From IMG/VR virus record IMGVR_UViG_3300045988_167643: a stretch of 64,000 bases of DNA, one strand, 5' to 3'. Position numbers and translations under genes: made by a program. The DNA comes from a virus. The stretch's first letter is position 1. Each line of letters begins with the position of its first letter. The notes beneath the pieces were generated by a model. The model saw nothing but the letters and a program-made list of their open reading frames with translations, made no database searches and was not told where the DNA came from. This document shows, piece by piece, positions 15,194 to 64,000 of this stretch.

Positions 15194-15410
15194 GAAGTTG
15201 AATAGTGGAATGTTGGCTTAGAAGCAGCCATCATCTAAGGAGTAGGGCTTTAAGTCTAAAGGTATGAAAAACTTCAATCGAAGATAAACGAGTAAGAGAA
15301 TAGGATGTAAAGAGTTATGATACGTCACCCCTTAACAGGTAAGGACAAGTCCCCTTTTGGCGTAATAGCACACCACTATTAATATTTTAGATGCATTTAA
15401 AAAATTAGGT

Positions 15411-48595: not shown

Positions 48596-50062
48596 GAAGA
48601 ACCACTTCCAGCAGGTGGGAGCTGCCTTCTCGGAAGTATTAATTTAGCTGAGTTTGCAACTTCACATGGATTTAATTTTGATGATTTTAGAAAAACAGTA
48701 CATATTGCAACAATCGGATTAAACGAAGTCCTTGACGAGGGATTACCATTACATCCATTACAGGAACAGAGAGATTCTGTAAGAGATTGGAGACAGATTG
48801 GACTTGGAATTTTTGGTCTTGCAGATTTACTTATTAAGATGGGTATTAAATATGGAAGTCCTGAAGCTATTGATTTATGTGATATGATCGGTCATGCAAT
48901 GGCTGATGAAGCACTTAAAACATCTGCTTTATTAGCAAAAGAGTATGGTCCATATCCAAAATATAATCCGGAAGCAGTTGAGCAATCTGCTTATTATTCA
49001 AAAAATGCTCTTGGTGAAACAAAACAGCTTGTAAAAGAGTATGGTCTTAGAAATTCTCAACTTCTTACAATTGCTCCAACCGGAACACTTTCTACAATGC
49101 TTAGAGTATCTGGTGGAATCGAACCAATTTTCGCAAACTATTATACAAGAAAAACAGAATCTCTTAAAGGACATGATGAGTATTACAAAGTGTATACCCC
49201 AATCGTAAAAGATTATATGGAAAAAAATAATCTAAAAGACGATTCTGAATTACCAGATTATTTTGTAACTGCACAGACACTTGATTATAAGAATCGTATC
49301 TATATGCAGAGTATTTGGCAGACACATATTGATGCATCAATTAGTTCTACGGTAAATGTACCAAATAATTTTACAGTAGAACAGGTTGAAGGATTATATA
49401 TGACAGCCTGGGAAGCAGGACTTAAAGGTGTCACAATTTTCCGTGATGGATGTAAACGTGCAGGAATTCTTACAACGTCAGATAGTAAAAAAGATGATGA
49501 AACATCTGAAAAGCCTAAAACAACTCTTGGCAGAGGAATGATCATTAAAGCTGATGACAACTGTGTTGGTAAGAAACGTACATTACAGACTGGATGTGGA
49601 ACATTGCATTGCGAAGCATTCTTTGATCCAGATACTGGAGAACTTCTTGAAACATATTTAAGTAAGGGATCTTCGGGCGGCTGCAACCAGTTTATGATCG
49701 GGCTTTCCAGAATGATTTCTCTTGCAGCAAGAGGTGGAATTGATATTTATTCAATCATTGATCAGCTTAAGTCAAGTGGAACATGTCCGTCATATGCAGT
49801 AAGAACAGCAACAAAACACGATACATCAAAAGGATCTTGTTGTCCTGTTGCTATCGGAAATGCTCTTATTGATATGTACAAAGAAATGCAGGATGAAATT
49901 TCTGATGATTCAGAAGAGATAATTGATACACCAAAACAGCCCAAAAAGAAAATCATTGTTGATAAATCAAAAACAGCAAAATGTCCTCAATGCGGTGGAA
50001 ATTTAGTTTTTGAAGGTGGTTGCAATACATGTAAAGATTGTGGTTGGAGTAAGTGTGATTAA
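48596..50062 (+). CDS. nrdJ: class II ribonucleotide reductase, exon 2
   Basis: The frame is open from 48572. EEPLPAGGSCLLGSINL continues the active-site Cys loop. APTGTLS, VNVP and TIFRDGC follow, then a C-terminal zinc ribbon CPQCGG..CNTCKDCG. Confidence 0.85.
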   Translation, partial: EEPLPAGGSCLLGSINLAEFATSHGFNFDDFRKTVHIATIGLNEVLDEGLPLHPLQEQRDSVRDWRQIGLGIFGLADLLIKMGIKYGSPEAIDLCDMIGHAMADEALKTSALLAKEYGPYPKYNPEAVEQSAYYSKNALGETKQLVKEYGLRNSQLLTIAPTGTLSTMLRVSGGIEPIFANYYTRKTESLKGHDEYYKVYTPIVKDYMEKNNLKDDSELPDYFVTAQTLDYKNRIYMQSIWQTHIDASISSTVNVPNNFTVEQVEGLYMTAWEAGLKGVTIFRDGCKRAGILTTSDSKKDDETSEKPKTTLGRGMIIKADDNCVGKKRTLQTGCGTLHCEAFFDPDTGELLETYLSKGSSGGCNQFMIGLSRMISLAARGGIDIYSIIDQLKSSGTCPSYAVRTATKHDTSKGSCCPVAIGNALIDMYKEMQDEISDDSEEIIDTPKQPKKKIIVDKSKTAKCPQCGGNLVFEGGCNTCKDCGWSKCD

Positions 50063-50115
50063 GTAAATAATTATGGGAGTCTTAACCGGCTCCCCCTTAT
50101 ATGGAGGAAATCAAG

Positions 50116-50478
50116 ATGAATATTAATGACATTCACGAAAAATATATTATTCATAACAAGATGGATTTTAATAAGCTTCGAAATAATGGCTTTAAAATTT
50201 ATGGTGACCACGCATATTTTAACAAATTTGTATATAAAGACATTGATAGGTTAACAGTTGACATTGATTTGTCAGATAATACATATACACTCACAGTTAC
50301 AGATATGGACCATGATGAGATATATTTTCCTATTTACAACTGGGATTGTGGTAAAAATTATGAACTTGAAGAGGTTATCGAGAATGTCATTGCTACACTT
50401 GATTCCCTCTGCACTCAAAAAATCCTATGGAATATAGAAAAGAAAAGGAAGAAAAAACATGTACAGCACAATAAATAA
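50116..50478 (+). CDS. hypothetical protein
   Basis: GGAGG lies 7 nt upstream of ATG 50116 (the track start is 50101). Confidence 0.6.
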   Translation: MNINDIHEKYIIHNKMDFNKLRNNGFKIYGDHAYFNKFVYKDIDRLTVDIDLSDNTYTLTVTDMDHDEIYFPIYNWDCGKNYELEEVIENVIATLDSLCTQKILWNIEKKRKKKHVQHNK

Positions 50479-50731
50479 AGGTGACATGGTTTATTATGCC
50501 AGGATTCAGAAAAAGAATGGTACTTATGATCTGTGCGAATTAAAAGTTCGAACAGTTGGAGAAGATTACTTTTGCGGAGTTGATAAAAAAGATAAACGTG
50601 CATACTTATTTGGATATAACGCTCTTGGCGATTATGTATTCCAAACTCGTAAAGAAGCATTAGATACGCTTCACGCTGCAGAGAAAAATAAGGTAGAAGT
50701 AAGTGAAGAAACTTACTACGAAGAATATTGA
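50459..50731 (+). CDS. hypothetical protein (90 aa)
   Basis: ORF track. Confidence 0.55.
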   Translation: MYSTINKGDMVYYARIQKKNGTYDLCELKVRTVGEDYFCGVDKKDKRAYLFGYNALGDYVFQTRKEALDTLHAAEKNKVEVSEETYYEEY

Positions 50732-50736
50732 GGTGA

Positions 50737-51408
50737 ATGCCTATGAGTTATTTAACACAGCATTTTAAAGGTAAATACAGAATTGTACCTGAGTTATCAC
50801 CGGAAAGCCATGATGTACCAAGAGAAGAAGATGGAACAGTTGATAAAAGTTATGATGACCTATATATTAAATGCCAATTCGGTAATAAAATTTATTATTA
50901 TGGTCGAGGTACTTTTGTAGCTTACATCCCAAGCATTATTCGTGGGAAAAATATTTTAAAGAAACTTGATGAAACAAATATTCCATATTCAGATCCACAC
51001 ATTTATGATAGTGAAGTAGAGTTCAAATTTAAAACTGCCGATATGAATGCAGTTGCAAATCTATTAAAAGCATCATCATTTGGTGCTGATATCACGCCTT
51101 ATAGTCTAAAAAATTTCCCAAAAGCAAATGTTACAATACCAACGGATAAAATGGATGAATATAAGAAAATAATCGCTGCTATTCAGAAAGAAGACTTATT
51201 AACTTTCTCAAGATTTACACAGTCATTTTTATATGATGTTCTTGCAAAAAAGCTTGGTCGTAGAAATAAACCATTTGATTATAAAACTGATATGAAAAAG
51301 TTAATGATGGCGCGTCAGACTAAAGAGTATATCTACACGAAAAATATGTGGGATGAATATTTGAAATATTTAGAAGAAAAAATTGAGAAATTTTACAAGG
51401 AGAAATAA
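50737..51408 (+). CDS. hypothetical protein (223 aa)
   Basis: ORF track, with GAGGTG RBS. ATG 50743 is an equally plausible start. Confidence 0.65.
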   Translation: MPMSYLTQHFKGKYRIVPELSPESHDVPREEDGTVDKSYDDLYIKCQFGNKIYYYGRGTFVAYIPSIIRGKNILKKLDETNIPYSDPHIYDSEVEFKFKTADMNAVANLLKASSFGADITPYSLKNFPKANVTIPTDKMDEYKKIIAAIQKEDLLTFSRFTQSFLYDVLAKKLGRRNKPFDYKTDMKKLMMARQTKEYIYTKNMWDEYLKYLEEKIEKFYKEK

Positions 51409-51410
51409 TT

Positions 51411-52046
51411 ATGAGAGAAGTTAAAACAGATACTGTAAATTTTAGTCTTAATCTTGCTGATTGCAGTCCAGCAGTGACAAATGTTGTTATGCAAACACTT
51501 CAGAATACATTCGATAGTCTGCGGAAAGTAATTGAAACAGATAAAGAAGAACAAAAGAAGAAAGAGACTAAGAATCACTGGAAACCGATTACTAGTGAAA
51601 AATATTTTTTTACTTATAGTAATGGAGATGTCGATTCTGTTATTTGGACTGAAAATAAAGCAGATAAAGGACGCTATGGTCTTCGAAATGTTTTTAGAAC
51701 CAAAGAAGACGCAGAATTTGAGGTAGAGCGTAGAAAAATCATGGCAGAACTTCAGAACTATGCAGATAAACACAATGGAGAAATCGCCCATCCATCGTAC
51801 GCATTCTGGCTTGCACTTGATGAAGACGACATGTCAATTACTGTTGAGAACGATTCATTTCTTCCACCGGTAGGTACTGTACTGTTCTCTAATGGAGATA
51901 TAGCTTACGATGCGATTGAAACTATTGGTGAAGACAGAATTCTTAAATATATGTTTAGAGTTAATCCAAATAAAGAATTGCATTGCAACGGTGATTGTGA
52001 ATGTTGCGATGAATATGATCCATGGGACGAGGAGGATGAAGATTAA
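51411..52046 (+). CDS. hypothetical protein with acidic C-terminus
   Basis: ORF track. Confidence 0.65.
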   Translation: MREVKTDTVNFSLNLADCSPAVTNVVMQTLQNTFDSLRKVIETDKEEQKKKETKNHWKPITSEKYFFTYSNGDVDSVIWTENKADKGRYGLRNVFRTKEDAEFEVERRKIMAELQNYADKHNGEIAHPSYAFWLALDEDDMSITVENDSFLPPVGTVLFSNGDIAYDAIETIGEDRILKYMFRVNPNKELHCNGDCECCDEYDPWDEEDED

Positions 52047-52576
52047 TGAAGAGGGTAGCAAAATTTGAGAAAGTAAGCTATAAGCAGTTTGAAAAAGATT
52101 ATTTAGATACATTTGGACTTGCAGGTGATGATACATCTAAGAGACTCAGACAAGAAATTGAAAGTATGTATTATGGATTAGAGTTACCTACAAGAGCTAC
52201 AAAGTTTAGCGCAGGATTTGATATTAGAACTCCATTTTCATTTACACTAAAGCCAGGAGAAGTAATTAAAATTCCAACAGGTATTAAATGTCGTATGAAT
52301 ACAGATTATGTTCTTATGATTTACCCAAGAAGTGGACTTGGATTTAAATATCAGTGCAATCTAGTAAATGGAACAGGAATTATAGACTGCGATTTTATTA
52401 ACTCTGACAACGAAGGTCACATTTTTATTAAACTTGTAAATCGTGGAGATAAAGAGTTTTCAGTAACAAGTAATGCAGCTATCGCCCAGGGAATTTTCTT
52501 AGAATATGGAATTACAGAAGACGATCATGTAGAAGCAACTCGTAACGGTGGGTTTGGATCAACTGATAGGAAATAA
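52046..52576 (+). CDS. dut: trimeric dUTPase
   Basis: Carries SAGFDIRT, PRSGLG, GIIDCDF and RNGGFGSTD. Confidence 0.85.
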   Translation: MKRVAKFEKVSYKQFEKDYLDTFGLAGDDTSKRLRQEIESMYYGLELPTRATKFSAGFDIRTPFSFTLKPGEVIKIPTGIKCRMNTDYVLMIYPRSGLGFKYQCNLVNGTGIIDCDFINSDNEGHIFIKLVNRGDKEFSVTSNAAIAQGIFLEYGITEDDHVEATRNGGFGSTDRK

Positions 52577-52585
52577 GAGGTAAAT

Positions 52586-52804
52586 ATGGATACATTTTAT
52601 TATTGCGCATTAGATGAAAATTCTAAAACATGTCCAAAACAGAACATTTGCAAAAGGTACACTCATAAAAAGGGTGTACCTGCTTCAGAAGATGCAAGTG
52701 CAAAATTGTATAATATCTGCAATGATAAATATGGATATAAATTGTTTTTAGAAGATGAAGATATAAAGGAAGATGAGAAAAATGACAATAACAAAGAAAT
52801 TTAG
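52586..52804 (+). CDS. small Cys-containing hypothetical protein
   Basis: ORF track. Confidence 0.5.
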   Translation: MDTFYYCALDENSKTCPKQNICKRYTHKKGVPASEDASAKLYNICNDKYGYKLFLEDEDIKEDEKNDNNKEI

Positions 52805-53027
52805 AATGAATACGCCAAGTGATGCAGAATTTATTGCGAAAAAATTATGTAAATATGATTATGATATTGATGCGGTCATTGGAAGATACGTAATTGATGC
52901 TAAATCACTTTTAGGGTTGCTTTCTTTAACACCTCCTAAAATTATTGATATCAGCATTCATACAGACAATGTAAAAATTGCAGAGGAAATTTTTAATAAT
53001 ATTTCAGAATTAAAGGAGACCGAATAA
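52782..53027 (+). CDS. HPr-like domain protein
   Basis: VIDAKSLLGLLSL...IDISIHTDNVKIAEEIFNNI parallels the HPr core (..NAKSIMGVMSLG...I.A.G.DE..A...I). The N-terminal active-site His region is not obvious. Confidence 0.45.
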   Translation: MTITKKFRMNTPSDAEFIAKKLCKYDYDIDAVIGRYVIDAKSLLGLLSLTPPKIIDISIHTDNVKIAEEIFNNISELKETE

Positions 53028-53929
53028 TGGAATATGAATATGGACTGATGACAAAAGCCGATAAATATCTCGTAGAATCTATCTATAATATCCTTCAAAA
53101 TGGTATTAAAGATGAAAATCCTAGACCAAAATATGAGGATGGAACACCTGCACATACCTATTTTGTGACACATCAAATGCGTCAATATGACCTCTCAAAA
53201 GGTGAATTTCCAATCTGTACTTTACGTCCAATTGCATGGAAAAGTGCAATCAAAGAGATGTTTTGGATCTTCCAAAAAGAGTCAAATAACCTCAAGCTTT
53301 TGAATGAAATGGGCGTGTCGTATTGGAATTTATGGGATATTGGAGACGGTACAAATGGATATAGATATGGTCATACAGTACACCGTTATGACCTGTTTAA
53401 AAAGCGTGTTTTAGATGATATCAAGAACAATCCATATGGACGTTATCATATTTGTAATCTCTGGCAAGAAGAGGAATTTAAAGATGAACCAAACGGATTA
53501 AAACCATGTGCTTATGAGACCATCTGGACAGTACGTGGAGAGTATTTAGACCTATTTTTGAATCAGAGATCAGGTGACTTATTAGCTGCAAGCGGTGGAG
53601 GTGGAATTAATGAAGTACAGTACGCTGCACTGCTCATGATGGTAGCTAGACACGCTGGATATAAACCTGGAAAATTTACTCATTTCGTGGCAAACGAACA
53701 GGTATACGACCTCCATATTGACCAGGCAAAAGAGTTAATTCATCGTGCAAATGAGAGACATTTAGTCACTTTTGAAGCGTTAAAAAATGGCGAAATTGAT
53801 AAAAATTTGATGCCAAAATTGGTATTAAATCCAGAAAAAAATAACTTTTACGACATGACAATTGACGACTTTTCTATGGGAAATTACAAGCCAATGAAGC
53901 CACAATTGACACTACCGTTGGGTATTTAA
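53027..53929 (+). CDS. thyA: thymidylate synthase family protein (divergent ThyA)
   Basis: Catalytic Cys context LKPCAYE, NQRSGDL, and INEVQYAALLMMVA in place of PFNIASYALL. The C-terminal ...LPLGI resembles the ThyA terminus. Confidence 0.7.
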   Translation: MEYEYGLMTKADKYLVESIYNILQNGIKDENPRPKYEDGTPAHTYFVTHQMRQYDLSKGEFPICTLRPIAWKSAIKEMFWIFQKESNNLKLLNEMGVSYWNLWDIGDGTNGYRYGHTVHRYDLFKKRVLDDIKNNPYGRYHICNLWQEEEFKDEPNGLKPCAYETIWTVRGEYLDLFLNQRSGDLLAASGGGGINEVQYAALLMMVARHAGYKPGKFTHFVANEQVYDLHIDQAKELIHRANERHLVTFEALKNGEIDKNLMPKLVLNPEKNNFYDMTIDDFSMGNYKPMKPQLTLPLGI

Positions 53930-53942
53930 GGAGAGAAAATTT

Positions 53943-54935
53943 ATGTTATCAGCAATCGTTTGTATGGATAATTTTGGTGGAATCGGCAAAGATGGTGACT
54001 TACTTTATAAGATTCCAGAAGATATGAAAAGATTTAAAGAATTAACAATGGGACATTCTGTTATCATGGGAAGAAAGACATGGAACAGTATTGGTAACAA
54101 GCCACTTAAAAGTAGGAACAATATTATCCTTTCTACGACACTTAATTATGCAGTAGAGCCAATCAATATCAATGAAAATAATGGATATGTTACAGATGTT
54201 AATGTGCTAAAAAAAATGACAAAAGAAGAAATAAAATTTATAGCCGAAATTCCGCTTAAATATTTTGCAATCGGTGGAGAAAGTATCTATAAAATGTTCT
54301 TACCTTATTGCGAAAAAGTTTATGCAACAATCGTTAATTTAGGCGATAGATGTATCTCTACAGCAGATGTATTTTTTCCAATTGAGTACCTTCTAAACAA
54401 TTTTGATGAAATTGAATCTATAGATAATACATACGGTAATTTATCATATAGTTTCAAAACATTTGTTAGAAAAGACAATTGCAAAACTGTATCCCACGCT
54501 TATTCTGATCCAGTTTCTGGACATAATGCAGTAGATAATCCGTCTCATTATTGCGGAACAAAATACCAGGTAATTAATTTTATAGAAGACTGGGGACTTG
54601 GTTATTGCCTTGGTAATGTAGTTAAATATATCTGCAGAGCCGGTAAGAAATATGTTGGTGACAAGCAAAAAGAACTTCAGGATTTAAAAAAAGCTAAATG
54701 GTATCTTGAAAGAAGATTAGAAGAGCATAAAAATGGTGTTGAGCTTGATTCTGATGATCTGAAAATGAATATATCTATAGACGATTTTGTAGAAGATCAA
54801 AAGCTCAATTATATTCGTAAAAAAATTATAAAAAATGTTACTGATTGCGTTTATGAAGAAATTGACACTAAGTTTTATGCCGCCTTAGAGTTGCTTGATA
54901 CAGAAATTAACAGGATGGAGGATGAGACTGCATGA
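53943..54935 (+). CDS. folA: dihydrofolate reductase fused to a DUF3310-like C-terminal domain
   Basis: The N-terminal IVCMDNFGGIGKDGDLLYKIPEDMKRFKELTMGHSVIMGRKTWNSI is DHFR. The C-terminal NPSHYCG...IEDWGLGYCLGNVVKYICRAGKK...DLKKAKWYLERRL matches the DUF3310 signature I recall. Confidence 0.8.
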   Translation: MLSAIVCMDNFGGIGKDGDLLYKIPEDMKRFKELTMGHSVIMGRKTWNSIGNKPLKSRNNIILSTTLNYAVEPININENNGYVTDVNVLKKMTKEEIKFIAEIPLKYFAIGGESIYKMFLPYCEKVYATIVNLGDRCISTADVFFPIEYLLNNFDEIESIDNTYGNLSYSFKTFVRKDNCKTVSHAYSDPVSGHNAVDNPSHYCGTKYQVINFIEDWGLGYCLGNVVKYICRAGKKYVGDKQKELQDLKKAKWYLERRLEEHKNGVELDSDDLKMNISIDDFVEDQKLNYIRKKIIKNVTDCVYEEIDTKFYAALELLDTEINRMEDETA

Positions 54936-55072
54936 TTACACTTAGTATTGGTACATTTATTTGTATTGTAGGCTGCACATTTGTGGTTGGTGGAGTAGTT
55001 GGACTTATTCTTACAGCTTGTCTTACTGCCGGAAGAAATAAAGATGATGATGATATTGATCAATATCCGTAA
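54932..55072 (+). CDS. small membrane protein (46 aa)
   Basis: Read by hand. ATG overlaps the folA stop (ATGA). A hydrophobic core is followed by an acidic tail. Confidence 0.4.
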   Translation: MITLSIGTFICIVGCTFVVGGVVGLILTACLTAGRNKDDDDIDQYP

Positions 55073-55120
55073 TATATTAAGCAAAATAAGTAAAATATTG
55101 CGAAATTGGGACTCGAACTA

Positions 55121-55149
55121 TTGCAAGAAATATATAAATTTCGTATAAT
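55121..55149 (+). promoter_or_regulatory. near-consensus sigma-70/SigA promoter
   Basis: TTGCAA (55121-26), an exact 17-nt spacer, then TATAAT (55144-49). Confidence 0.65.
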
Positions 55150-55155
55150 GACTTC

Positions 55156-55316
55156 AAGGTCAGAAGTACTATGTTCGAGGGCAATAAACTTTAGCGTAAA
55201 ATGGGGCAAATTTTTTAGCCTGAAACATCAAACAAAATAGTTTACTTACAAGGAACTTATAAGAACAAGAACATAGAAAATGACCTTTGATATTTTTATC
55301 CGAGGTCATTTTTTTG
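55156..55316 (+). ncRNA. candidate ~160-nt sRNA or terminated leader upstream of the Tn7-like genes
   Basis: Runs from the predicted TSS about 7 nt after the -10 box to an intrinsic terminator. It contains no ORF. The 5' AAGGTCA can pair with the terminator 5' arm. Confidence 0.5.
55277..55316 (+). terminator. intrinsic terminator
   Basis: ATGACCT(55280-86)/AGGTCAT(55303-09) plus an inner GATA/TATC stem, followed by T6-7. Confidence 0.7.
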
Positions 55317-55582
55317 TGCAATTTGACGAAAAGTTCAAAAAACAGCCAAAAATAGCTCAAAATCGCGATTTTTCCAAAAATCGACTTTCTAGAAGTCAAT
55401 AAAAATAAGGGATTTAAGTGGGTCATTTTCCCGATAAAATTGTGATTTTATTGTAGTCAAGTTAACATGCACAAAAGAGGAAAATCTTGCGTCAGAGCAA
55501 ATTTTGACCGGAATAAAAGAATAAAATTTTTGCCTCAAAAAAGGCTAAAAGCAATTGCCCTTCGACATAGTATTTTTAACCT

Positions 55583-55751
55583 CGTTTTTAGGAAACGTTT
55601 TTAGGAAAATCCGCAAACCATTGATTTTACTGGGTTTGCGAGTACTTTATTTTTCCTAAAAACGAAATGCTAAAAATGAAAATAACCCTAAAAATGCGTT
55701 TTTAGGAAAAAATCATTCGTTTTTAGCAAAAAAATAGCCGTTTTTATGAAA
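55583..55751. repeat. array of 13-bp CGTTTTTAGGAAA motifs (putative transposase-binding sites)
   Basis: Forward copies lie at 55583, 55596, 55697, 55718 and 55739, the last three phased at exactly 21 bp. Reverse copies lie at 55652-64, 55668-77 and 55686-96. An 8-bp-stem hairpin lies at 55612-55640. Confidence 0.75.
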
Positions 55752-55779
55752 AACCATTTCAAAAATAGGGGGTAAAATA

Positions 55780-56139
55780 ATGCGGAATAAAAATTCAAAA
55801 GTAGCTGCAACAAAATTATATTTATGCAAATGTGATGGCGTATGCATAACCTACAGCAAGATTCAATATGCCTATGCAATGAAACTAGAAAAAGATCAAA
55901 GCATAATCAGTATACGAGTAAATGTAGATCTTGATGGATATAAGGATAGTAAGTATCCAGAAAGAACTTACACATCAGACTTTGTATGCGTAAAAGATAC
56001 AGGTGACCTAATGGTCCGAGAATGTATAGAAAGAAAATTATTGCAAAAACCAATGACAATTAGATTACTAGACGGTTCCAGAGATTACTGGAAGACGCAT
56101 GGTGTGTCAGATTGGGGGATTGTTATTGATGAAGAATAA
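55780..56139 (+). CDS. tnsA: short TnsA-like endonuclease-fold protein (N-terminal catalytic domain only)
   Basis: YSKIQYAYAMKLEKD..., TYTSDFVCV, MVRECIERK and RDYWKTHGVSDWGIVIDEE align by eye to the TnsA_N pattern (S.lE..., YTPDF, vEVK, YW..G..w.ivtE). Confidence 0.55.
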   Translation: MRNKNSKVAATKLYLCKCDGVCITYSKIQYAYAMKLEKDQSIISIRVNVDLDGYKDSKYPERTYTSDFVCVKDTGDLMVRECIERKLLQKPMTIRLLDGSRDYWKTHGVSDWGIVIDEE

Positions 56140-57952
56140 ATTGTATAAATACAAAGATACAATAGTAAGAGTCTTAAACGAATCTGGTCAATCAGTTTTT
56201 ATTATTGATTGTTTAAAACCAAAAATGCCATATACAGTGCATAAAATGGATTTTAAGGACGCTATTTTGTGTGATGAGGATTTACTCATGCAAGAGACAA
56301 ATGAGCCTGTATTCGACATATTAGAAGCTTCGGAGCATAATAAAAAGATAGCATACGATCGGTACAACATGATTGCTCCATTACTTTCCTTTATGGACGA
56401 TAAATATAAACGAACATTATTGTTTAATCAAGTATGTCAGGAAAGAAATATAAGCAAACAGTCTCTTAGAAATTACTTTTACAAGTATCTTATTTACCAA
56501 AATATTTGTGTACTTGCACCTAAGAGTAACATTACAGAAAAATCACTTACACAAGATGAAAAAAATATGAGATGGGCTTTAAATAAATATTTTTATAGTA
56601 CAAACAGATATAGTTTAAAGTCTTCTTACTTATTTATGCTGAAAGAAAAATATTGCGATATAAATGGCAAGCTACAATCAAATATTCCATCTTTTTATCA
56701 GTTCCGCTATTTCTATAGGAAAACAAAAAATATGCAAACTTTTTACATCACAAGGGATGGTTTGAGTAATTATCAAAGAAATAAAAGACCATTATTGGGG
56801 GATGGAATACAAGAATTTGCACCTGCAGTTGGAACAGGATTACTTGATGCAACGGTATGTGATATATACCTTATAGATGAAACAAACAGCTTAGTTGGAA
56901 GACCTATATTAACAGTTTGTATAGACGCATATAGCAGTTTTTGTTATGGCTATGCATTAACTTGGGAAGGTGGTATTTATAGTTTAAAAGTACTTATGCA
57001 AAATATGGTATCTAATAAAAAGAAACATTGTGAAGAACTTGGTATATTCATAAATGAGAATCAGTGGAGCATATCTGAAATTCCTGGAACGTTTGTAACT
57101 GATATGGGAAAAGAATATGTATCTGAGAATTTTGAACAAATAACTGAGCTTGGAGTTACACTAAAAAACTTGCCACCATACCGTCCTGAGTTAAAAGGTG
57201 TTGTAGAAAAATTTTTTAATATAATTCAAGAAACATACAAACCTTATTTAAAAAATAAAGGTATAGTGGAACCTGATTTTCTTGAAAGAGGCGTACATGA
57301 TTATAGAAAAGATGCATGTTTGACAATAGAAGACTTTGAAAAAATCATAGTGCGATGTATTGTGTATTATAACTCGCAACGTATTTTAAAGAACTTCCCT
57401 TATACAGAAGACATGATAGAAAACGATATTAAGCCATATGCAAATAATATTTTTGAGTACAGCAAATTATCTCCAGGAGCTAACTTAATACCGGTAACAT
57501 TGAAACAAATTATGCTTACATTACTTCCAAGGACCACTGGCGTATTTAGCAGATTTGGACTTAAAGTGAATAAAATGAGGTACAAAAATGAGAATTATGT
57601 TGAAAAATATTTGGTTGGTGGGGAAGTAACGGTTGCTTATAATCCAGATAATGTAAGTTATGTATGGCTTATAGAAAATGGATGTTATATACAGTTTAAA
57701 TTGATTGAAAGTAGGTATAATGGAAAAGAGTTAACTGATGTAGAATTGATCGAAAAAGAACATCGAAAACTCGTAAATAATCATTGTAATAGTAACACTC
57801 AGGCACAAATTGATTTGGCAAATTCTTTAGAAGAGATAGTGGCTAATGTACAGAAACCTCAAAAATTAAATATGAAATGTGTTACATCTGTTAAAAATAG
57901 AGCTAAAAGAAAATGTCATATTGATTTCATGGAGGATATCTTAAATGGATGA
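56129..57952 (+). CDS. tnsB: TnsB/TniA-type DDE transposase (rve/Mu-like)
   Basis: DDE triad contexts LLDATVCDIYLID, FVTDMGKEY and PELKGVVEKFF. An HTH-like N-terminal region is present. ATG 56129 or 56099 could be the start. Confidence 0.85.
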   Translation: MKNKLYKYKDTIVRVLNESGQSVFIIDCLKPKMPYTVHKMDFKDAILCDEDLLMQETNEPVFDILEASEHNKKIAYDRYNMIAPLLSFMDDKYKRTLLFNQVCQERNISKQSLRNYFYKYLIYQNICVLAPKSNITEKSLTQDEKNMRWALNKYFYSTNRYSLKSSYLFMLKEKYCDINGKLQSNIPSFYQFRYFYRKTKNMQTFYITRDGLSNYQRNKRPLLGDGIQEFAPAVGTGLLDATVCDIYLIDETNSLVGRPILTVCIDAYSSFCYGYALTWEGGIYSLKVLMQNMVSNKKKHCEELGIFINENQWSISEIPGTFVTDMGKEYVSENFEQITELGVTLKNLPPYRPELKGVVEKFFNIIQETYKPYLKNKGIVEPDFLERGVHDYRKDACLTIEDFEKIIVRCIVYYNSQRILKNFPYTEDMIENDIKPYANNIFEYSKLSPGANLIPVTLKQIMLTLLPRTTGVFSRFGLKVNKMRYKNENYVEKYLVGGEVTVAYNPDNVSYVWLIENGCYIQFKLIESRYNGKELTDVELIEKEHRKLVNNHCNSNTQAQIDLANSLEEIVANVQKPQKLNMKCVTSVKNRAKRKCHIDFMEDILNG

Positions 57953-59180
57953 TTATACAAAAATATTACCTAAAATGTTATCAGGAGATGGACTTGTAAA
58001 AGCATTGTCTGTTGTTCCAAAATATGATGAAAATAGTAAAAATATGGATATTGGAGAAAGGCTGATTGCCCTATCAAATCTATATGATATTTATATTCCA
58101 TCTAAAATGTCCATAGAGATTTATAACAAATTATATTTGTCTTTATATCACTCACTAAAAAAGAAGAGTTCAAAATTGGCATCACAGCAAAGATACGAAA
58201 ATTACAAAAGATTTTTAACAGGAAACTCTAATAGTATAATTGGCGGATCTGATTCATTTACAATAATAGGGAGTTCAGGTATTGGTAAAAGTACAGCCGT
58301 TAACAGGGCAGTAGATGTTATTGTTGAAAATTGTAAATTTGATTGCAATTTATTCTCAGATATAATTCCATTTGTAACTGTACAATGCCCATTTGATTCA
58401 TCTGTAAAAGGTCTTGCGATCGAAATTTTGATGAAGATAAACAGTATGCTTAAAACACAATATTTAAATGGGAAAATTATTGATAAATGTACCACAGATG
58501 CCCTCATAAGCCAAATAAGTACAATAGCAATGAATAATATAGGTGTTCTTATCATTGATGAGATACAAAATGTTGCAAACTCAAAAAACGGTAAAAATAT
58601 AATAGGATTTCTTACACAGCTTATCAACAATAGTGGAATAAGTATTTGCATGGTTGGGACTCCGGAAAGCGTGTTATTTTTTGAAGGCGCAGAGCATCTT
58701 GCCAGAAGAACTATGGGGCTTAAATATACAACACTTTCTTATGATGAGTACTTTAAAAACATATGTAATATATTATTTAGATATCAATATACTATAAAAA
58801 ATGCAACAATAAATGAAGAGTTTTATAAATGGATATATGACCATTCCTGCGGTAACATTTCAATTGTAATATCATTATTACACGATGCTCAGGAAATTGC
58901 TATAATGTCAGGAGTTAGTAAGATTAATATTAATATATTGAATGAAGCATACCAAAATAGGATTGAAATGTATCACAAATTTATACAACCAAGCATTAAC
59001 AAAGTCGATAAAAAGAAAAATAAACACATAGTATCTGATAGAACAAATAATATCACACAAGATTGCGTAATAAAAGAGTTTAATAACATTGAAACGATAT
59101 TGAAAATATCTAAGGAAAAAAATATTGATTTTATAAAACTGCTCAAACAATCAATTATAGTGGAGGAAATAAAAATATGA
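57945..59180 (+). CDS. tnsC: TnsC/TniB-type AAA+ transposition regulator
   Basis: Walker A GSSGIGKST and Walker B VLIIDEIQN. Coupled to tnsB and tniQ. Confidence 0.8.
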   Translation: MDDYTKILPKMLSGDGLVKALSVVPKYDENSKNMDIGERLIALSNLYDIYIPSKMSIEIYNKLYLSLYHSLKKKSSKLASQQRYENYKRFLTGNSNSIIGGSDSFTIIGSSGIGKSTAVNRAVDVIVENCKFDCNLFSDIIPFVTVQCPFDSSVKGLAIEILMKINSMLKTQYLNGKIIDKCTTDALISQISTIAMNNIGVLIIDEIQNVANSKNGKNIIGFLTQLINNSGISICMVGTPESVLFFEGAEHLARRTMGLKYTTLSYDEYFKNICNILFRYQYTIKNATINEEFYKWIYDHSCGNISIVISLLHDAQEIAIMSGVSKININILNEAYQNRIEMYHKFIQPSINKVDKKKNKHIVSDRTNNITQDCVIKEFNNIETILKISKEKNIDFIKLLKQSIIVEEIKI

Positions 59181-59989
59181 CAAACAGACTTCCTAGCATC
59201 TATGATGACGAAACAGTTTACAGCTGGTTCTGTAGATATCTTATAAGTAGCGGTATATGGAGAGAGCATGAGATTGCAAAAGAACTATTTGTAAACAGTA
59301 CAAATGTTATTAGTAAATTATTTATTGGAAATATTAATAAAGATACCGAAAATAATATTGAGAAAGTTATATCAATAGAAAATCTGTTAAAACATCATAC
59401 AATGTTTTATGTTTATACAGGGTATTGTTCAAATGACTATGCTAATGAATTCCTTTATAATTTAAAAACGGACTGCTATAAAACAGAGCTTAATATAAGA
59501 AGACCACGTAGCGAAAATAGACAATTGAAATATTGTCCAATGTGTATTATTGAGGATCGTAAAAAATATGGAGAAGCATATTGGCATAATATACATCAAA
59601 TACGAATGTTACCGATATGTCCTATACACAAGTGCAAATTGCATAATAGTGAAATACGTTATATTGGTTATGGAAGAGTAAGAGAAAAATTATCTCCACT
59701 AGAAATGATGAATCTTAACTCTGATGTAGAATATAACACAAATGAAATGCTTGATAAAATAGTTGAATACGCAATTGACAGGTATTATAAACAAGACATA
59801 AAAGATATTGGTATTGATTATTTGTCGATTAGAAAAGAAAATTGGGGATTAAGAAGTAACATAATTAGTTTTTATAAAAAACATGGAATAAATTTTTGCG
59901 GTAAAGAAATAGACTCAATGGTATATGACAATAGAAAAAATTTTTATACAATGAGTGCCATATATTATTATTTAAAAATATGCCATTAA
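59177..59989 (+). CDS. tniQ: TniQ-family target-selection protein (short, 270 aa)
   Basis: N-terminal LPSIYDDETVYSWFCRY, and the zinc finger YCPMCIIED...HNIHQIRMLPICPIHKC is typical of TniQ/TnsD N-domains. Confidence 0.8.
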   Translation: MTNRLPSIYDDETVYSWFCRYLISSGIWREHEIAKELFVNSTNVISKLFIGNINKDTENNIEKVISIENLLKHHTMFYVYTGYCSNDYANEFLYNLKTDCYKTELNIRRPRSENRQLKYCPMCIIEDRKKYGEAYWHNIHQIRMLPICPIHKCKLHNSEIRYIGYGRVREKLSPLEMMNLNSDVEYNTNEMLDKIVEYAIDRYYKQDIKDIGIDYLSIRKENWGLRSNIISFYKKHGINFCGKEIDSMVYDNRKNFYTMSAIYYYLKICH

Positions 59990-60065
59990 TTTCAAAATTA
60001 TCTTGAAACTTTAGTTGTTATGGAGTAGTATAATTATAAAATTATCCAATAGGAGGAATTTTATT

Positions 60066-60353
60066 ATGGCAGCAAGAACAAGACGAACAAAAGAAGAAGT
60101 GCTTAATTCAAAACTTACAAAAATTGATGAAGAAATTAAAAAATTAACTGAGAAGATTAATGTATTATCAGAACAGAAGAAAAATATTGATAAAGAACTT
60201 GCTATTTTAAAAGACCAGAAATCTAAAGCCGAACGTGCAGCCCAGCTTACAGCTCTTGCAGATCTTATGGATTCCAACGGTTACACGATTGATGAACTGA
60301 AGGAGCTTATGTCCATGCCGAAACCAACGGTAGAAGTAGCTGATGAGGAATAG
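60066..60353 (+). CDS. small coiled-coil protein (DUF4315-like by recollection)
   Basis: AGGAGG RBS precedes ATG 60066. A heptad-rich helix is followed by the C-terminal GYTIDELKELM. Confidence 0.55.
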   Translation: MAARTRRTKEEVLNSKLTKIDEEIKKLTEKINVLSEQKKNIDKELAILKDQKSKAERAAQLTALADLMDSNGYTIDELKELMSMPKPTVEVADEE

Positions 60354-60432
60354 TAAACGAGGGATAATATAAACGTAGCGTTAGAAAAGTAGTAGAGTAG
60401 GGTAGTGGAATGATAGAATTGTAATACACTAT

Positions 60433-60487
60433 AAAAGCCTGGGCGAGTGCATGTATTGATTTGCATTGTTGCCTGGGCTTTTATTAT
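60433..60487 (+). terminator. intrinsic terminator
   Basis: AAAAGCCTGGGC (60433-44) pairs with GCCTGGGCTTTT (60471-82) using two G.U pairs, followed by TTTTATTAT. Confidence 0.55.
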
Positions 60488-60573
60488 GGTCATTAGACCA
60501 CATTGTACATGGAAATATACAGTAAAATATAGTAATATATTAGTAGAAAAGAACAGATTGGAGGGTTGACAAT

Positions 60574-60825
60574 ATGGACACATATACAGAACAAGACAGA
60601 TTAAATGATTTCAAATATTTTGTAAGTATATACCAAGATTTATATAATAAATATGGAGAATCCTTTATAGCGCTGAAAAATAAGAAAATTCTTGGAGCAT
60701 TTAAAACAGTAAATGAAGCAATACAAGCGCTCTCAGACAAATATAAGCTCGGAACATACATTATTCAAGAATGTAATGGTGATGAATCTGGATATACTGC
60801 ATCTATTATGACAATAAGGATATAA
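60574..60825 (+). CDS. small protein (DUF5678-like by recollection), upstream partner of the protease
   Basis: ORF track, with GGAGGG RBS. A 4-nt gap separates it from the next gene. Confidence 0.6.
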   Translation: MDTYTEQDRLNDFKYFVSIYQDLYNKYGESFIALKNKKILGAFKTVNEAIQALSDKYKLGTYIIQECNGDESGYTASIMTIRI

Positions 60826-60829
60826 TATT

Positions 60830-61315
60830 ATGGACTTATACTTGGCATTTACTTTAAAATCAAAAGATATATCAAAACGTTTAATTACAGATATATTTAT
60901 TAATTTGGATAAGGAAGATATTTACAAGAATAGAGCATGGCGAGGAGTATGGGATACTGGTGCTACAAGATCGGCAATAGATAAAAGAATAGTTGATGAA
61001 TTAAATTTGACATCAGTAGGTAAGGCTAGACTTAGTACAGCAAATGGTGAAAAAATCGTAAACACTTATCGCATATCTATGATATTGCCAAATGAAGTTA
61101 CAATCAGTAATGTACTTGTATCAGAAGTCGAGTTAGGTGAAGATTGTGATTTGTTGGTTGGAATGGATATTATATCAAAGGGGGATTTTTCAATAACAAA
61201 TAAATATGGTGAAACTGTATTTAGTTTTAGAACTCCCTCAATAAAAGAAATTGATTATGTTAAAGAATCAAAGAAAGAAATAGAACAATTTATAGCGCTG
61301 AATTACAATAAATAA
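60830..61315 (+). CDS. retropepsin-like (clan AA) aspartic protease
   Basis: The active-site motif VWDTGATRSAID (D-T-G-A) and later LLVGMDII (flap/dimer-type hydrophobic-G-x-D) are present. Confidence 0.7.
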   Translation: MDLYLAFTLKSKDISKRLITDIFINLDKEDIYKNRAWRGVWDTGATRSAIDKRIVDELNLTSVGKARLSTANGEKIVNTYRISMILPNEVTISNVLVSEVELGEDCDLLVGMDIISKGDFSITNKYGETVFSFRTPSIKEIDYVKESKKEIEQFIALNYNK

Positions 61316-61384
61316 TGCTAACTCTATGCTATAATATCCCTAAAGAGATCCACCACTAATTCACCACGCAAGGAGGTAACCATA

Positions 61385-61477
61385 ATGCCAACACAGATTG
61401 CTGCAACACCACAACAAGAGGTCGCAGCAACCACAGACTATCCAGTCACAGACCAGTCATCATCCGATCAGGATTAA
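61385..61477 (+). CDS. 30-aa peptide ORF
   Basis: AAGGAGG lies 8 nt upstream of ATG. Sequence is MPTQIAATPQQEVAATTDYPVTDQSSSDQD. Read by hand. Confidence 0.35.
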   Translation: MPTQIAATPQQEVAATTDYPVTDQSSSDQD

Positions 61478-61804
61478 CATACTTAATACATAACCACACA
61501 AAAGACAGTCAGGCTCACGCAGTTTGGCTTTTAACATTTCAATCTCACACAAAATCCACAAAATAGAGTTTACATATGCTTGAATTGGAAGCTTTTGGAT
61601 TAGAAGCTTTAAAGGTTATCAAAGGTTACATTGTATCATGCTAGGCTTAAGGATATATGGGGTCATATAAATGATCCAAGACTATATGTGCACTCTCTTT
61701 TATGGATTTTTTGAAATGTGTTTTAGACAAGAATTATAATACTATAAAGTCACACATATGTCTATTAGAATCGTTCGACATAAATCTACATACAGTTAGT
61801 AAAA

Positions 61805-61857
61805 ACAAAACGCGAAAAAATGGGGTAGTAAGCTGTATAATAACAACTTATTACCCC
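61805..61857 (-). terminator. intrinsic terminator of the minus-strand lysis cassette
   Basis: An 11-bp stem (61822-32 / 61847-57, one mismatch on the minus strand) is followed on the minus strand by ATTTTTTCGCGTTTTGT. Confidence 0.7.
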
Positions 61858-61867
61858 ATAGGTATAA

Positions 61868-62446
61868 TTACTGCTTAAAGCCTTTTTCCATCAGTTCAAG
61901 ATATTTATTACGAACAAATTGCATTGATGAATTAACCTTTCCATTTTCGAGACCATTTTCTTCTAACACACGTTCATATTCTGTGTATGTATCAAAAATA
62001 TGATCATAAATTTCTTTATTATATACTCTACCGTTCATAACAGCATTTGAAAAGTCTAAAATTTCCCAACGCATGTCATTAATCTCTTTGTTAACTAACA
62101 TTTTCCTTAAATTCTCAACTGAATTTTGCAGTAACGTCTGACTGTCGGTTAATTGTTTCTGTATATCAAATGATTGGTCTCTATCATGGATTCTATTATC
62201 CTTAAACTGTTGAATTTCTTTCTGTAAATCTATAATTTGATTATTCAAGTCTTTGATACGTTCCTCTTGTGCCTGTTTAGCTAAAGCAGATTTTGTAGTA
62301 ATTCCAAATGTAGAAACAACGAAGTCTTTAATTTTTACGCATAGCATTACAATACCTATTGCAATCAAAACTCCAATTACAACGGTCCACCAATCAAAAC
62401 TGCGTACAACTTCTACATTCTCTTTAATCCCACCAAACTTATCCAT
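61868..62446 (-). CDS. membrane-anchored coiled-coil protein, putative holin-like lysis factor
   Basis: N-terminal TM WWTVVIGVLIAIGIVMLCV. Sits immediately downstream of the endolysin gene on the same strand. Confidence 0.55.
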   Translation of the reverse strand: MDKFGGIKENVEVVRSFDWWTVVIGVLIAIGIVMLCVKIKDFVVSTFGITTKSALAKQAQEERIKDLNNQIIDLQKEIQQFKDNRIHDRDQSFDIQKQLTDSQTLLQNSVENLRKMLVNKEINDMRWEILDFSNAVMNGRVYNKEIYDHIFDTYTEYERVLEENGLENGKVNSSMQFVRNKYLELMEKGFKQ

Positions 62447-62493
62447 TTAAATCACCTTATCCTCACTCCCTTTATTCATTGTGTGCTGTACTA

Positions 62494-63513
62494 TCATTTA
62501 ACAAGATACCTACTGGAAACAAATCCAGGTGTATCTTTGTATGTAACAAGATACCACTTGACTCCATTGACGGTAGTGTAGTATCCATAATTTGCAACAG
62601 ATTTTCCATTAGGGATTGTAATGATAAGATTTGAATTGGATGTATCTCCTGGTTTATAACGAAGATTAAGACCATTAGATGCTTTAACCTTGTAAGTACC
62701 AGCAATTGATTTATTAAAGGACTGTGCAGAAGCAACTTTAGAAGATGATGCAATAGATGGCTTTGAACTTGGTTTTGGAGCCGATTCTGCTTTAATTTTA
62801 GCATTATATAAGGTTGTAAGTTTAGCTTTTGTAGCCTCACCATAAAGACCGTCTGCAACAAGCCCATTATCACGCTGAAACGCTTTTACAGATGCTAATG
62901 ATCCTGATCCAAAATCTCCATCAGCACCATATTTTCCACATGAATAACCAAGTTTAATAAGCATTGTCTGCATTGTTTTTACTGCATCACCTTTATCACC
63001 CATAGCAAGATAATTTTTTGTAGTTACAGGCGGATTACCATCAGCTGCTTCAGTATATCTGAGAACAACATTCCATGGATAATTTCTATAAGAGCGAATT
63101 AAGAATTCACGTCCAGTCTGGTCCCCAGGTTTACCTCCAGTAGCTCTACCATTTTCATTGATAGATGCTTCAACTTCAAGTCCATTACCACAATACATTG
63201 CGACATGATACTTTTCATTAAGTAAAATATCACCACGCTGCAATCCGGCTCCTGTTGCAAGATTTACTTTAGATGTTACGTCCTTAAATTCAAAATGTGT
63301 AAATACTGCTTTCATAACACCAGTATAAGCACAGCCATAAGTTTTAAATGAATAATCTTTTACAGGAATACCTGCATTAACCCACGCAGTGTAAACAGCA
63401 GAAGAGCAGTCATAATCGCCTTTTTCGTTCCAACGATAAGCCTGATCGTAACCATGACTATTATCACGAGCAGTTGCTTCCATCCAACGAGTAGCTTTTT
63501 CTGTTTTTGTCAT
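62494..63513 (-). CDS. endolysin: NlpC/P60-type cysteine peptidase + PG_binding_1 + SH3b
   Basis: Cys/His contexts DYDCSSAVY and YHVAMY. The PG-binding repeat is GDKGDAVKTMQTMLIKLGYSCGKYGADGDFGSGSLASVKAFQRDNGL. The C-terminal YKVKASNGLNLRYKPG...WYLVTY is SH3-like. Confidence 0.85.
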   Translation of the reverse strand: MTKTEKATRWMEATARDNSHGYDQAYRWNEKGDYDCSSAVYTAWVNAGIPVKDYSFKTYGCAYTGVMKAVFTHFEFKDVTSKVNLATGAGLQRGDILLNEKYHVAMYCGNGLEVEASINENGRATGGKPGDQTGREFLIRSYRNYPWNVVLRYTEAADGNPPVTTKNYLAMGDKGDAVKTMQTMLIKLGYSCGKYGADGDFGSGSLASVKAFQRDNGLVADGLYGEATKAKLTTLYNAKIKAESAPKPSSKPSIASSSKVASAQSFNKSIAGTYKVKASNGLNLRYKPGDTSNSNLIITIPNGKSVANYGYYTTVNGVKWYLVTYKDTPGFVSSRYLVK

Positions 63514-63605
63514 AAGATGTGACTCCTTTCTTAGAATTGAATTTAGAGTTAAATTTTAGAAGTGATCAATTACCATATATTTCCAGTGAAATATTTAATT
63601 AAAAT

Positions 63606-63614
63606 TGGTATAAT
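63606..63614 (+). promoter_or_regulatory. extended -10 promoter element TGgTATAAT
   Basis: Lies in the divergent intergenic region between the lysin start and the next + strand ORF. Confidence 0.4.
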
Positions 63615-63646
63615 TTAAAAAAAATAGAAAAGGATGGTAATAAAAA

Positions 63647-64000
63647 ATGGCAACTGATATGAAAGAAAAATTTGAAATCAAGAATTATGTTAAATTGATT
63701 TGCCTAAGACTTGATCATTATGAAAGTTTTATAGAAGATGAAGTGAATACAGACTGTATCTCAGATATTAATAATTTTATACTTAAACATAAAAATGAAG
63801 AGGGAGTTAAGATTTTAATATTTGAGATGAAAAATATGAGAATGACTACGATTTCTCAGGCGAGAGAGTATATACAACATCTACATGCATTCGATTACAT
63901 TCGTGGATTGATTGAATCCGGGCATGATCTTATTACTGCAGACCAAGTTGATAAAATGTCAATAGGTGAAATAATTACATATATGCTTGATTACAAAAAA
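63647..64000 (+). CDS. 5' part of a CDS running off the window
   Basis: ATG 63647 follows AAGGATGG, and 118 codons are open to the window end. Confidence 0.55.
   Translation, partial: MATDMKEKFEIKNYVKLICLRLDHYESFIEDEVNTDCISDINNFILKHKNEEGVKILIFEMKNMRMTTISQAREYIQHLHAFDYIRGLIESGHDLITADQVDKMSIGEIITYMLDYKK

Follow-up and report, generated by a model that had tools for sequence, protein, structure and literature searches.

The window analysed here, a stretch of viral DNA of 64,000 nucleotides, carries a cluster of short repeats directly upstream of a tnsA-like gene. Do these repeats form the end of a transposon, as their arrangement suggests, or are they something else? The original prediction took three phased copies (55697-55751) for terminal TnsB sites and the neighboring 55583-55696 for a separate non-autonomous mini-element abutting them. 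Our analysis placed the transposon tips elsewhere. The array is neither a transposon terminus nor a separate mini-element.

The repeat array and the genes behind it

The cluster comprises six strong and two weak copies of the 13-mer CGTTTTTAGGAAA within 169 bp (Table 1). Sequence reading and pattern search agreed on exact copies at 55583 and 55596 on the plus strand, at 55652-55664 on the minus strand, and at 55697 on the plus strand, and together they confirmed the predicted coordinates of the copies. Two further forward copies differ by one mismatch each (55718, CGTTTTTAGCAAA; 55739, CGTTTTTATGAAA), the latter having T where most close relatives have G. With 55697 they form the direct-repeat family D2, whose 21-bp steps are exact, as predicted. 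The two weak copies, read on the other strand (CATTTTTAGCATT at 55665-77 and CATTTTTAGGGTT at 55684-96), carry four mismatches each to the 13-mer, with the core ATTTTTAG intact in both. They are credible because distant relatives also have two reverse copies there. In the relative L011, the G and A at position 2 are exchanged between two reverse copies. Likewise present were the predicted hairpin with its 8-bp stem (dG -11.3, z -2.8) and the palindrome CCTAAAAA-TGCG-TTTTTAGG at 55687-55706. The array occupies 200 bp between a 396-bp unit, described below, and the tnsA ribosome-binding site.

Allowing up to two mismatches, the 13-mer matched the 64-kb window at 10 positions against 3.0 expected, a count reached by 0 of 100 shuffles. 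Six of the 10 matches fell within the 169-bp array. The core CGTTTTTA occurred nine times in the same window, compared with 2.8 expected.

Between the first forward and the reverse copies lies an 18-nt element, ATTGATTTTACTGGGTTT (core AGTAAAATCAAT; 55621-55638), which is present in about 17 of 65 loci. Its orientation in the window is shared by L068, L069, and L079, and is opposite in L005 (~159-176), L016, L027, L054, and others. A promoter role for this central element was set aside as inconsistent across clades.

The downstream gene predicted to be tnsA-like belongs to a genuine Tn7-type set. Its 119-residue product had no match in sequence searches against Pfam, NCBIfam, and PDB and was identified by fold search only: the AF2 model (pLDDT 93.6) was matched by Foldseek to Tn7 TnsA (1T0F/1F1Z) with a probability of 1.00 and a TMq of 0.81. 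The protein is a member of an unannotated family of ~214 clusters. Its Asp (SDF) and Glu (REC) residues are invariant, and the C-terminal domain of Tn7 TnsA is missing. By modeled fold, it is therefore a TnsA cut down to the catalytic domain (mini-TnsA), and a predicted endonuclease. For the transposase that follows, the best solved relative in profile searches was Tn7 TnsB (7PIK, E 1.7e-53, residues 159-606).

Table 1. Features of the Tn7-type module and its surroundings, with positions in the window
Feature	Position	Strand	Basis or remark
Sigma-70-like promoter, strong, TTGCAA-17-TATAAT, reading into the unit	55121-55149	+	10/12 consensus matches
Terminal unit, 396 bp, tips 5'-TGTTCG ... CGACA-3' as inward-facing inverted repeats	55172-55567		Host junctions; inverted repeat I1
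Outer tip: 8-bp terminus TGTTCGAG with TnsB-type sites GGCAATAAACTTTAGCGTAAAAT and GGGGCAAATTTTTTAGCC	55172-55220	+	Compared with Tn7R TGTGGGCG/GACAATAAAGTCTTAAACTGAA
Intrinsic terminator within the unit	55280-55316	+	dG -19.4, z -6.7, followed by a U-run
Inner inverted tip copy, ...AATTGCCCTTCGACA; right end of the integrated phage	55522-55567	-	Inverted repeat and junctions
Spacer, 15 bp, TAGTATTTTTAACCT	55568-55582	+	Gap between unit and first copy; prolongs the inverted repeat with 55157-55171
Two abutting forward copies, 13 bp start to start	55583-55608	+	Sequence and motif search
Hairpin with 8-bp stem and conserved ATTGATTTTACTG element in the loop	55612-55640		Folding; orientation of the element differs by clade
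Reverse copies, one exact and two degenerate	55652-55696	-	Sequence and motif search
Forward triple with exact 21-bp steps; the last copy stops 28 nt short of the tnsA ATG at 55780	55697-55751	+	D2 repeats
Mini-TnsA, 119 aa, predicted catalytic domain only	55780-56139	+	Fold match to Tn7 TnsA
TnsB DDE transposase, 617 aa	56099-57952	+	rve and Mu-transpos_C domains
TnsC/TniB AAA+ protein, 411 aa	57945-59180	+	PF05621; Tn7 TnsC 7MBW, E 1.6e-16
TniQ target selector, short, 270 aa	59177-59989	+	PF06527, E 1.2e-16
Possible vestigial right end, ..TTCGACA/TA	61774-61780	+	9-bp identity with 55561-55569

Transposon tips and chromosomal junctions of the phage

The tips map to the 396-bp unit (TGTTCGAGGGCAAT ... 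ATTGCCCTTCGACA) to the left of the array. The unit is single in this window, which has the joined form, and one copy stands at each end of the integrated prophage. It contains putative GGCAAT-type, Tn7-like TnsB sites in both orientations. When compared with the ends of Tn7 read from plasmid R721, the tip TGTTCGAG/GGCAATAAAC.. resembles TGTGGGCG/GACAATAAAG.., and the outer part of the unit, TGTTCGAG/GGCAATAAACTTTAGC, resembles TGTGGGCG/GACAATAAAGTCTTAAAC of Tn7R. The outer tip is also homologous to the TGTCGTAGGGCAAT tips of bacterial relatives, whose flanks diverge beyond it. Indeed, the sequence left of the TGT tip differs from locus to locus among relatives. All of them have an inverted-repeat-bounded unit upstream of the array, which in the Lachnospiraceae clade reads TGTCGTAGGGCAAT ... 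ATTGCCCTACGACA.

Transcription signals accompany the unit. Its intrinsic terminator has covarying stems in relatives. The promoter reading into the unit and the 22 bp that follow it (..CAAGGTCAGAAGTACTA) make up a module found immediately interior to the right-end unit in bacterial relatives, with the homologous 'TATAAT..CAAGGTCAAGGATACTA/TGTCG' in L034 and L036. This homology fits the window being the joined form.

Several smaller features of the unit were recorded. Promoter, outer tip, and terminator (55121-55316) would yield a small RNA of ~160 nt, and the 5' part of this RNA (61 nt) is 70% complementary to the inner tip region, 55522-55582. That region may lie in the tns leader, and the RNA could act in antisense control. 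An Rfam search at a permissive threshold and a tRNA scan detected no RNA genes in 54000-62600. An 85-residue minus-strand open reading frame within the unit (55169-55426) is of low complexity and was treated as non-coding. Each unit also contains one array-like site (CGATTTTTGGAAA on the minus strand at 55366-55386 in the phage; GGATTTTTAGGAAC in Lachnospiraceae units, e.g. L036 at ~9105-9120), such that an integrated element would carry one at each end besides the array.

Contigs spanning the junctions with bacterial DNA define both tips. In the metagenome contigs L243 and L251, bacterial DNA joins position 55172 exactly (host/TGTTCG). Their bacterial genes, which encode BMC shell proteins, EutP/PduV, and an AraC-family regulator, extend up to ...gcatgtAAAAT, and past the junction these contigs follow the window from 55172 into the array and the tns genes. 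At the other tip, L235 and L249 run colinearly with the window to 55567 and then enter a galactokinase gene (CGACA/TAAAAT and CAACA/AAAAT, respectively). The uninterrupted site, ...gcatgtAAAATgaaattaac..., was found in contigs encoding the identical AraC protein with galK adjacent. This empty site (...gcatgtAAAATgaaatt...) is flanked by an AraC-family gene on one side and galK on the other in a Blautia faecis-like genome. Comparison of L243 and L249 with the empty site in L252 revealed a 5-bp duplication, AAAAT. All four junction contigs represent one chromosomal site, and the 1-bp offset of the L235 junction indicates at least two independent insertion events. The galK cluster includes Blautia faecis; comparison of the AraC-family protein gave no host name. 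Two phages also considered as sources of an empty site, L097 and L104, match at the right flank only and yielded none. Taken together, the bacterial junctions at 55172 and 55567, the empty site, and the duplication indicate that the whole phage genome was inserted as a Tn7-like transposon.

The tns module has phage genes to its left and to its right. The rest of the window is devoted to phage replication and nucleotide metabolism (DnaB, RecJ, DNA polymerase, ligase, RNR, thyA, DHFR, tRNAs, and endolysin); the DNA polymerase, helicase, and ligase are the phage's own. In a sister phage (L233), identity to the window is 90% up to 55065, where a tyrosine integrase (PF00589; L233 4913-6106) stands exactly at the place of the promoter-unit-tns module. 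Bacterial genes, including leuA and an IS3-type transposase, follow the integrase. Judged from their sequences, the difference between the two phages is a swap of integration modules. The Tn7-like module apparently takes over the part of an integrase in this large gut phage and inserts the entire phage genome into the host chromosome. No match to 50000-64000 was returned by megablast against 50,697 GenBank phages. An exact scan of viral contigs with the 14-mer ATTGCCCTATGACA returned at least 120 matches, which were judged mostly random.

Assembly breaks and abutted tips bear on the number of units. Phage contigs break ~54 nt inside each unit edge, several of them ending at 55223-55226 and one beginning at 55513, as expected of a k=55 assembler that meets a repeat flanked on each side by two alternative sequences. 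In L250 (3218-3222), two units abut across 4 bp (CGACA-AAAT-TGTTCG), which suggests that the single unit in short-read assemblies may be a collapsed repeat. L036 contains a similar junction of abutted tips (CGACA-TGGT-TGTCG; 9234-9238). Both 4-bp spacers equal the last 4 nt of the 5 bp preceding the left tip at the respective site. These junctions could represent either a circle junction or a tandem insertion. L036/L038 show two tandem elements with a unit at both ends of each. Their units share 260 of 262 positions within one element and 250 of 262 between the two, and the two L036 elements differ by 9%.

Bacterial relatives use a different site. L025, L034, L038, and L054, which encode a long TniQ (448 aa), are inserted just past the stop codon of a ppdK-like gene. 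This gene, which encodes 876 aa and is presumably a pyruvate phosphate dikinase, recognised by eye, faces the tnsA side of the bacterial elements. In Anaerotruncus (L034), the element sits between the stop codon and the terminator of the ppdK-like gene, and a second unit forms a direct repeat at the far end. When downstream DNA was searched by BLAST for sequence like the left-end region, in order to locate right ends, only L034 gave a match. A fuzzy right-end match in L025 was discarded as a false positive, since it falls inside a methylase gene. In the literature searched, we found no description of this attachment site.

Conservation and proposed role of the array

IMG/VR yielded close phage relatives of the module, at 97% TnsB identity, as well as diverged relatives at 50-59%, and a genome scan identified 80 loci in Lachnospiraceae, Oscillospiraceae, and Negativicutes. 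All such relatives have an equivalent array upstream of mini-tnsA, with the core TTTTTGGGAA. Across 65 loci, 354 sites were counted (consensus YRTTTTTGGGRAA). The commonest order was F R R F F with distances from tnsB fixed, and same-strand spacing peaked at 12-13 and 20-21 bp. The array is thus conserved in Clostridia, Negativicutes, and phage despite a TnsB identity of only 49-59%. Even small non-phage relatives of ~10 kb from Clostridia and Negativicutes have the same array, and otherwise only tnsA, tnsB, tnsC, and tniQ are common to them. The array was seen only on the tnsA side: no motif cluster was present within 10-12 kb downstream in any of ~60 loci, and the right ends in L034, L036, L235, and L249 had no array. 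A layout kept in ~65 relatives at 50-59% TnsB identity is, by this comparison, that of a conserved functional element and not of a parasitic mini-element.

We favor, with moderate confidence, the reading that the array is a conserved subterminal cis-element of the Tn7-like module, composed of accessory TnsB sites or half-sites and serving as a putative operator and possible enhancer for the tns operon. Its location on the tnsA side only, its conservation together with only tnsA, tnsB, tnsC, and tniQ, its helical phase, the autoregulation of Tn7, and the resemblance of its core to known sites all point in this direction. In the terminal sites of the window, the distal half (..TTTAGC, ..TTTTAGCC) is similar to the array core TTTTTAG(G/C), and the family core TTGGGAA resembles TTGGGAAC in Tn7L sites. 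The half-site similarity involves 6-7 bases of AT-rich sequence, and the array motif differs from the terminal GGCAAT sites. In Tn7R, as read in R721, four TnsB sites in 20-21-bp phase stand just upstream of tnsA. The innermost of these overlaps the tns promoter, leading to TnsB autoregulation (PMC9308760).

In the integrated form, the sequence runs from host DNA through a 396-bp unit, the array, tnsABC-tniQ, the remaining phage genome, the promoter, and a second 396-bp unit back into host DNA. We infer that the copies, spaced by 12-13 or 20-21 bp, would offer accessory TnsB sites or half-sites on one helix face. TnsB bound there would repress the tns operon, as does TnsB at the promoter-proximal site of Tn7R, and would also mark the tnsA-proximal end. 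With that end marked, the transpososome would favor the outer tip over the inverted inner tip 16 bp away in an enhancer-like manner. A search of the array for sigma-70 promoters gave no convincing candidate, so "operator" here describes position only. Canonical Tn7-like ends have TnsB sites less than ~10 bp from the tip and at both ends; the array has neither property. The idea that the copies at 55596 and 55652 flank an invertible promoter was dropped because the orientation is the same in all close relatives.

Could a protein other than TnsB be the binder? An operator for a lysogeny repressor, a host factor, mini-TnsA, or TniQ, comparable to O1-O3 of Mu, is unlikely but deserves consideration. 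The array occupies the position of the Mu operator/enhancer region, between attL and the transposase genes, and its repeats are phased. In addition, the central conserved 12-18-mer (55621-55638), read on the minus strand of the window, matches what we take to be the IHF consensus, WATCAANNNNTTR. However, the occurrence of the array in ~10-kb non-phage relatives that share nothing beyond the tns genes and tniQ makes a phage repressor unlikely, and no other conserved DNA-binding gene was found to accompany the array across the family. As for TniQ, its length changes from 270 aa here to 448 aa in bacterial relatives with the array unaltered.

A role of the copies as paired nucleic acid is harder still to credit and, in our estimate, rather improbable. 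On this view, pairing between copies of opposite orientation, within the 5' leader of the tns mRNA or in an extruded cruciform, would control translation, termination, or stability, and the motif would be a by-product of that pairing. A folding energy of -39.3 kcal/mol (z -6.2) was indeed obtained for 55583-55710, whose copies can pair as RNA or as a DNA cruciform, and the reverse-forward pairs are conserved. Moreover, a rightward promoter-like sequence, CCTTGAnn-17-ATAAAAT, is conserved inside the unit of several clades, which suggests that the array may be transcribed. Yet the forward copies nearest the promoter, two to six in number, repeat directly and have no partner. All copies share one consensus whatever their partner, and complementarity ends at the motif. 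The 3' arm of the central stem (55612-55640) varies without compensation among near-identical phages. Finally, a helical-phase spacing of 12-13 or 20-21 bp suggests recognition of duplex DNA.

The original prediction of terminal TnsB sites abutted by a mini-element has become very improbable, even though parts of it hold. The phased triple does lie on the tnsA-proximal side with the 20-21-bp phase of Tn7R, and the forward and reverse motif sets do face inward. However, host DNA meets the element at 55172 and 55567 instead of 55583 or 55697, which places the first copy 411 bp and the phased triple 525 bp inside the outer tip, away from any element boundary. The tips themselves carry a different motif. 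The proposed 115-bp mini-element at 55583-55696 has no TGT/ACA tips and no target-site duplication around it, and it was never absent as an independent unit would be: all of the at least 10 close relatives covering the array have it, and the layout is kept at 50% TnsB identity. The missing distal end, sought as inverted motif copies downstream, was not found, and no inverted motif cluster was seen at any distal end examined. A miniature pair of inward-facing ends does exist, but it is the neighboring unit at 55172-55567. A chance or low-complexity cluster in AT-rich intergenic DNA, as the 31% G+C content and many T and A runs of the region might suggest, can be dismissed for all practical purposes, as the observed count was unmatched in shuffles and order, orientation, and spacing are conserved across phyla.

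Relation to known elements and significance

The locus has the full set of Tn7-like features: TnsA (by fold only), a TnsB, TnsC, and TniQ operon, TGT...ACA tips that are inverted between the two ends and followed by putative TnsB sites of ~22 bp, and site-specific insertion with a 5-bp duplication. Its TnsB and TnsC match those of Tn7, phased 20-21-bp repeats stand directly upstream of tnsA as in Tn7R, and the tnsA-proximal end likewise faces the site-specific target. Unlike in Tn7R, the phased array lies 411-580 bp from the tip with the 396-bp unit in between, mixes orientations, uses a motif unlike that of the terminal sites, and has no counterpart at the other end.

Mu offers a second comparison. 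The Mu phage genome is bounded by transposon ends and is inserted by a DDE transposase with an AAA+ partner, creating a 5-bp duplication. Between its left end and the A and B genes lies an internal site cluster (operator/enhancer) with a sequence unlike that of the end sites. Insertion is near-random, and replication proceeds by transposition. The phage described here is similar in that the whole phage lies between transposon ends with a short target duplication and an internal site cluster near the transposase genes. In contrast to Mu, it occupies one site (at least two events) and encodes TnsA, TniQ, and its own replication genes. Near-random insertion and the MuA/MuB/repressor c gene set of Mu-like phages were not found, nor was a repressor of the Mu type or an N-terminal enhancer-binding domain.

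Tn402/Tn5053 elements have a TniA/TniB/TniQ gene set and short repeat arrays at their ends. The end repeat given for them in the original prediction, CGTTTTCAGAAGACG, is similar to the array motif. The present module differs in possessing TnsA, in having TnsB and TnsC nearest those of prototypic Tn7, and in that no resolvase was seen.

The 396-bp unit resembles the LTR of retroviruses and LTR retrotransposons. Like an LTR, it stands directly repeated at the two ends of the integrated element, begins with TG, finishes with CA, and contains transcription signals; the enzyme acting on it is of the DDE (rve-type) class. Unit copies are 99% identical within one bacterial element versus 95% between neighboring elements. 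Unlike an LTR system, the locus has no reverse transcriptase, and the terminator precedes the promoter, hence there is no R region. The right tip-AAAT-left tip junction of L250, and the same geometry with TGGT in L036, resemble circular intermediates of the IS911 and IS30 type. To our knowledge, abutted-end junctions are not known for Tn7-like elements.

These likenesses allow a bolder reading, which we put forward tentatively as possible but still doubtful. The 396-bp unit might be LTR-like for a DNA phage, whose infecting or excised genome, with terminal units or an abutted junction (as in L250), would be pasted whole into one chromosomal site by TnsB, TnsC, and TniQ. The array would then couple expression to the choice of the outer tip, much like the Mu enhancer/operator. 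If true, this would be a lysogeny system built on Tn7 and not on an integrase. Contigs of this phage group reach 120-220 kb. Confirmation that the phage inserts itself by its Tn7-type module would link Mu-type transposable phages with Tn7 and would mean that TniQ-directed transposition is able to move more than 100 kb. The minimal TnsA, LTR-like ends, and internal array would further provide a natural system for studying end choice and self-regulation in Tn7-like elements, and end choice matters for the engineering of CAST and Tn7 insertion tools. In 2021, a survey covering 6,549 Tn7-like transposons reported a Tn7-like transposase in no virus (PMC8649781). We found no later description of a phage integrating via a Tn7-type module in the literature searched, of which coverage was incomplete, and a prior description is possible.

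Two regions flanking the module deserve mention. Between tniQ and the conserved lysis-side genes lies variable cargo (60335-61799) encoding a coiled-coil protein, an 83-residue open reading frame, and a retropepsin-like aspartyl protease (PF13975); relatives have a different 900 bp at this position. The possible vestigial right end is situated at the edge of this cargo and is fuller in relatives (AAATTGCAACAATTCGACA/TAAAG; L003 ~15320-15345). By its sequence, 61774-61782 may be what is left of the right end of an ancestral transposon of small size. On the other side, 53943-54935 encodes a DHFR fused to a DUF3310 domain (330 aa), followed by a hydrophobic open reading frame of 46 aa at 54933-55073.
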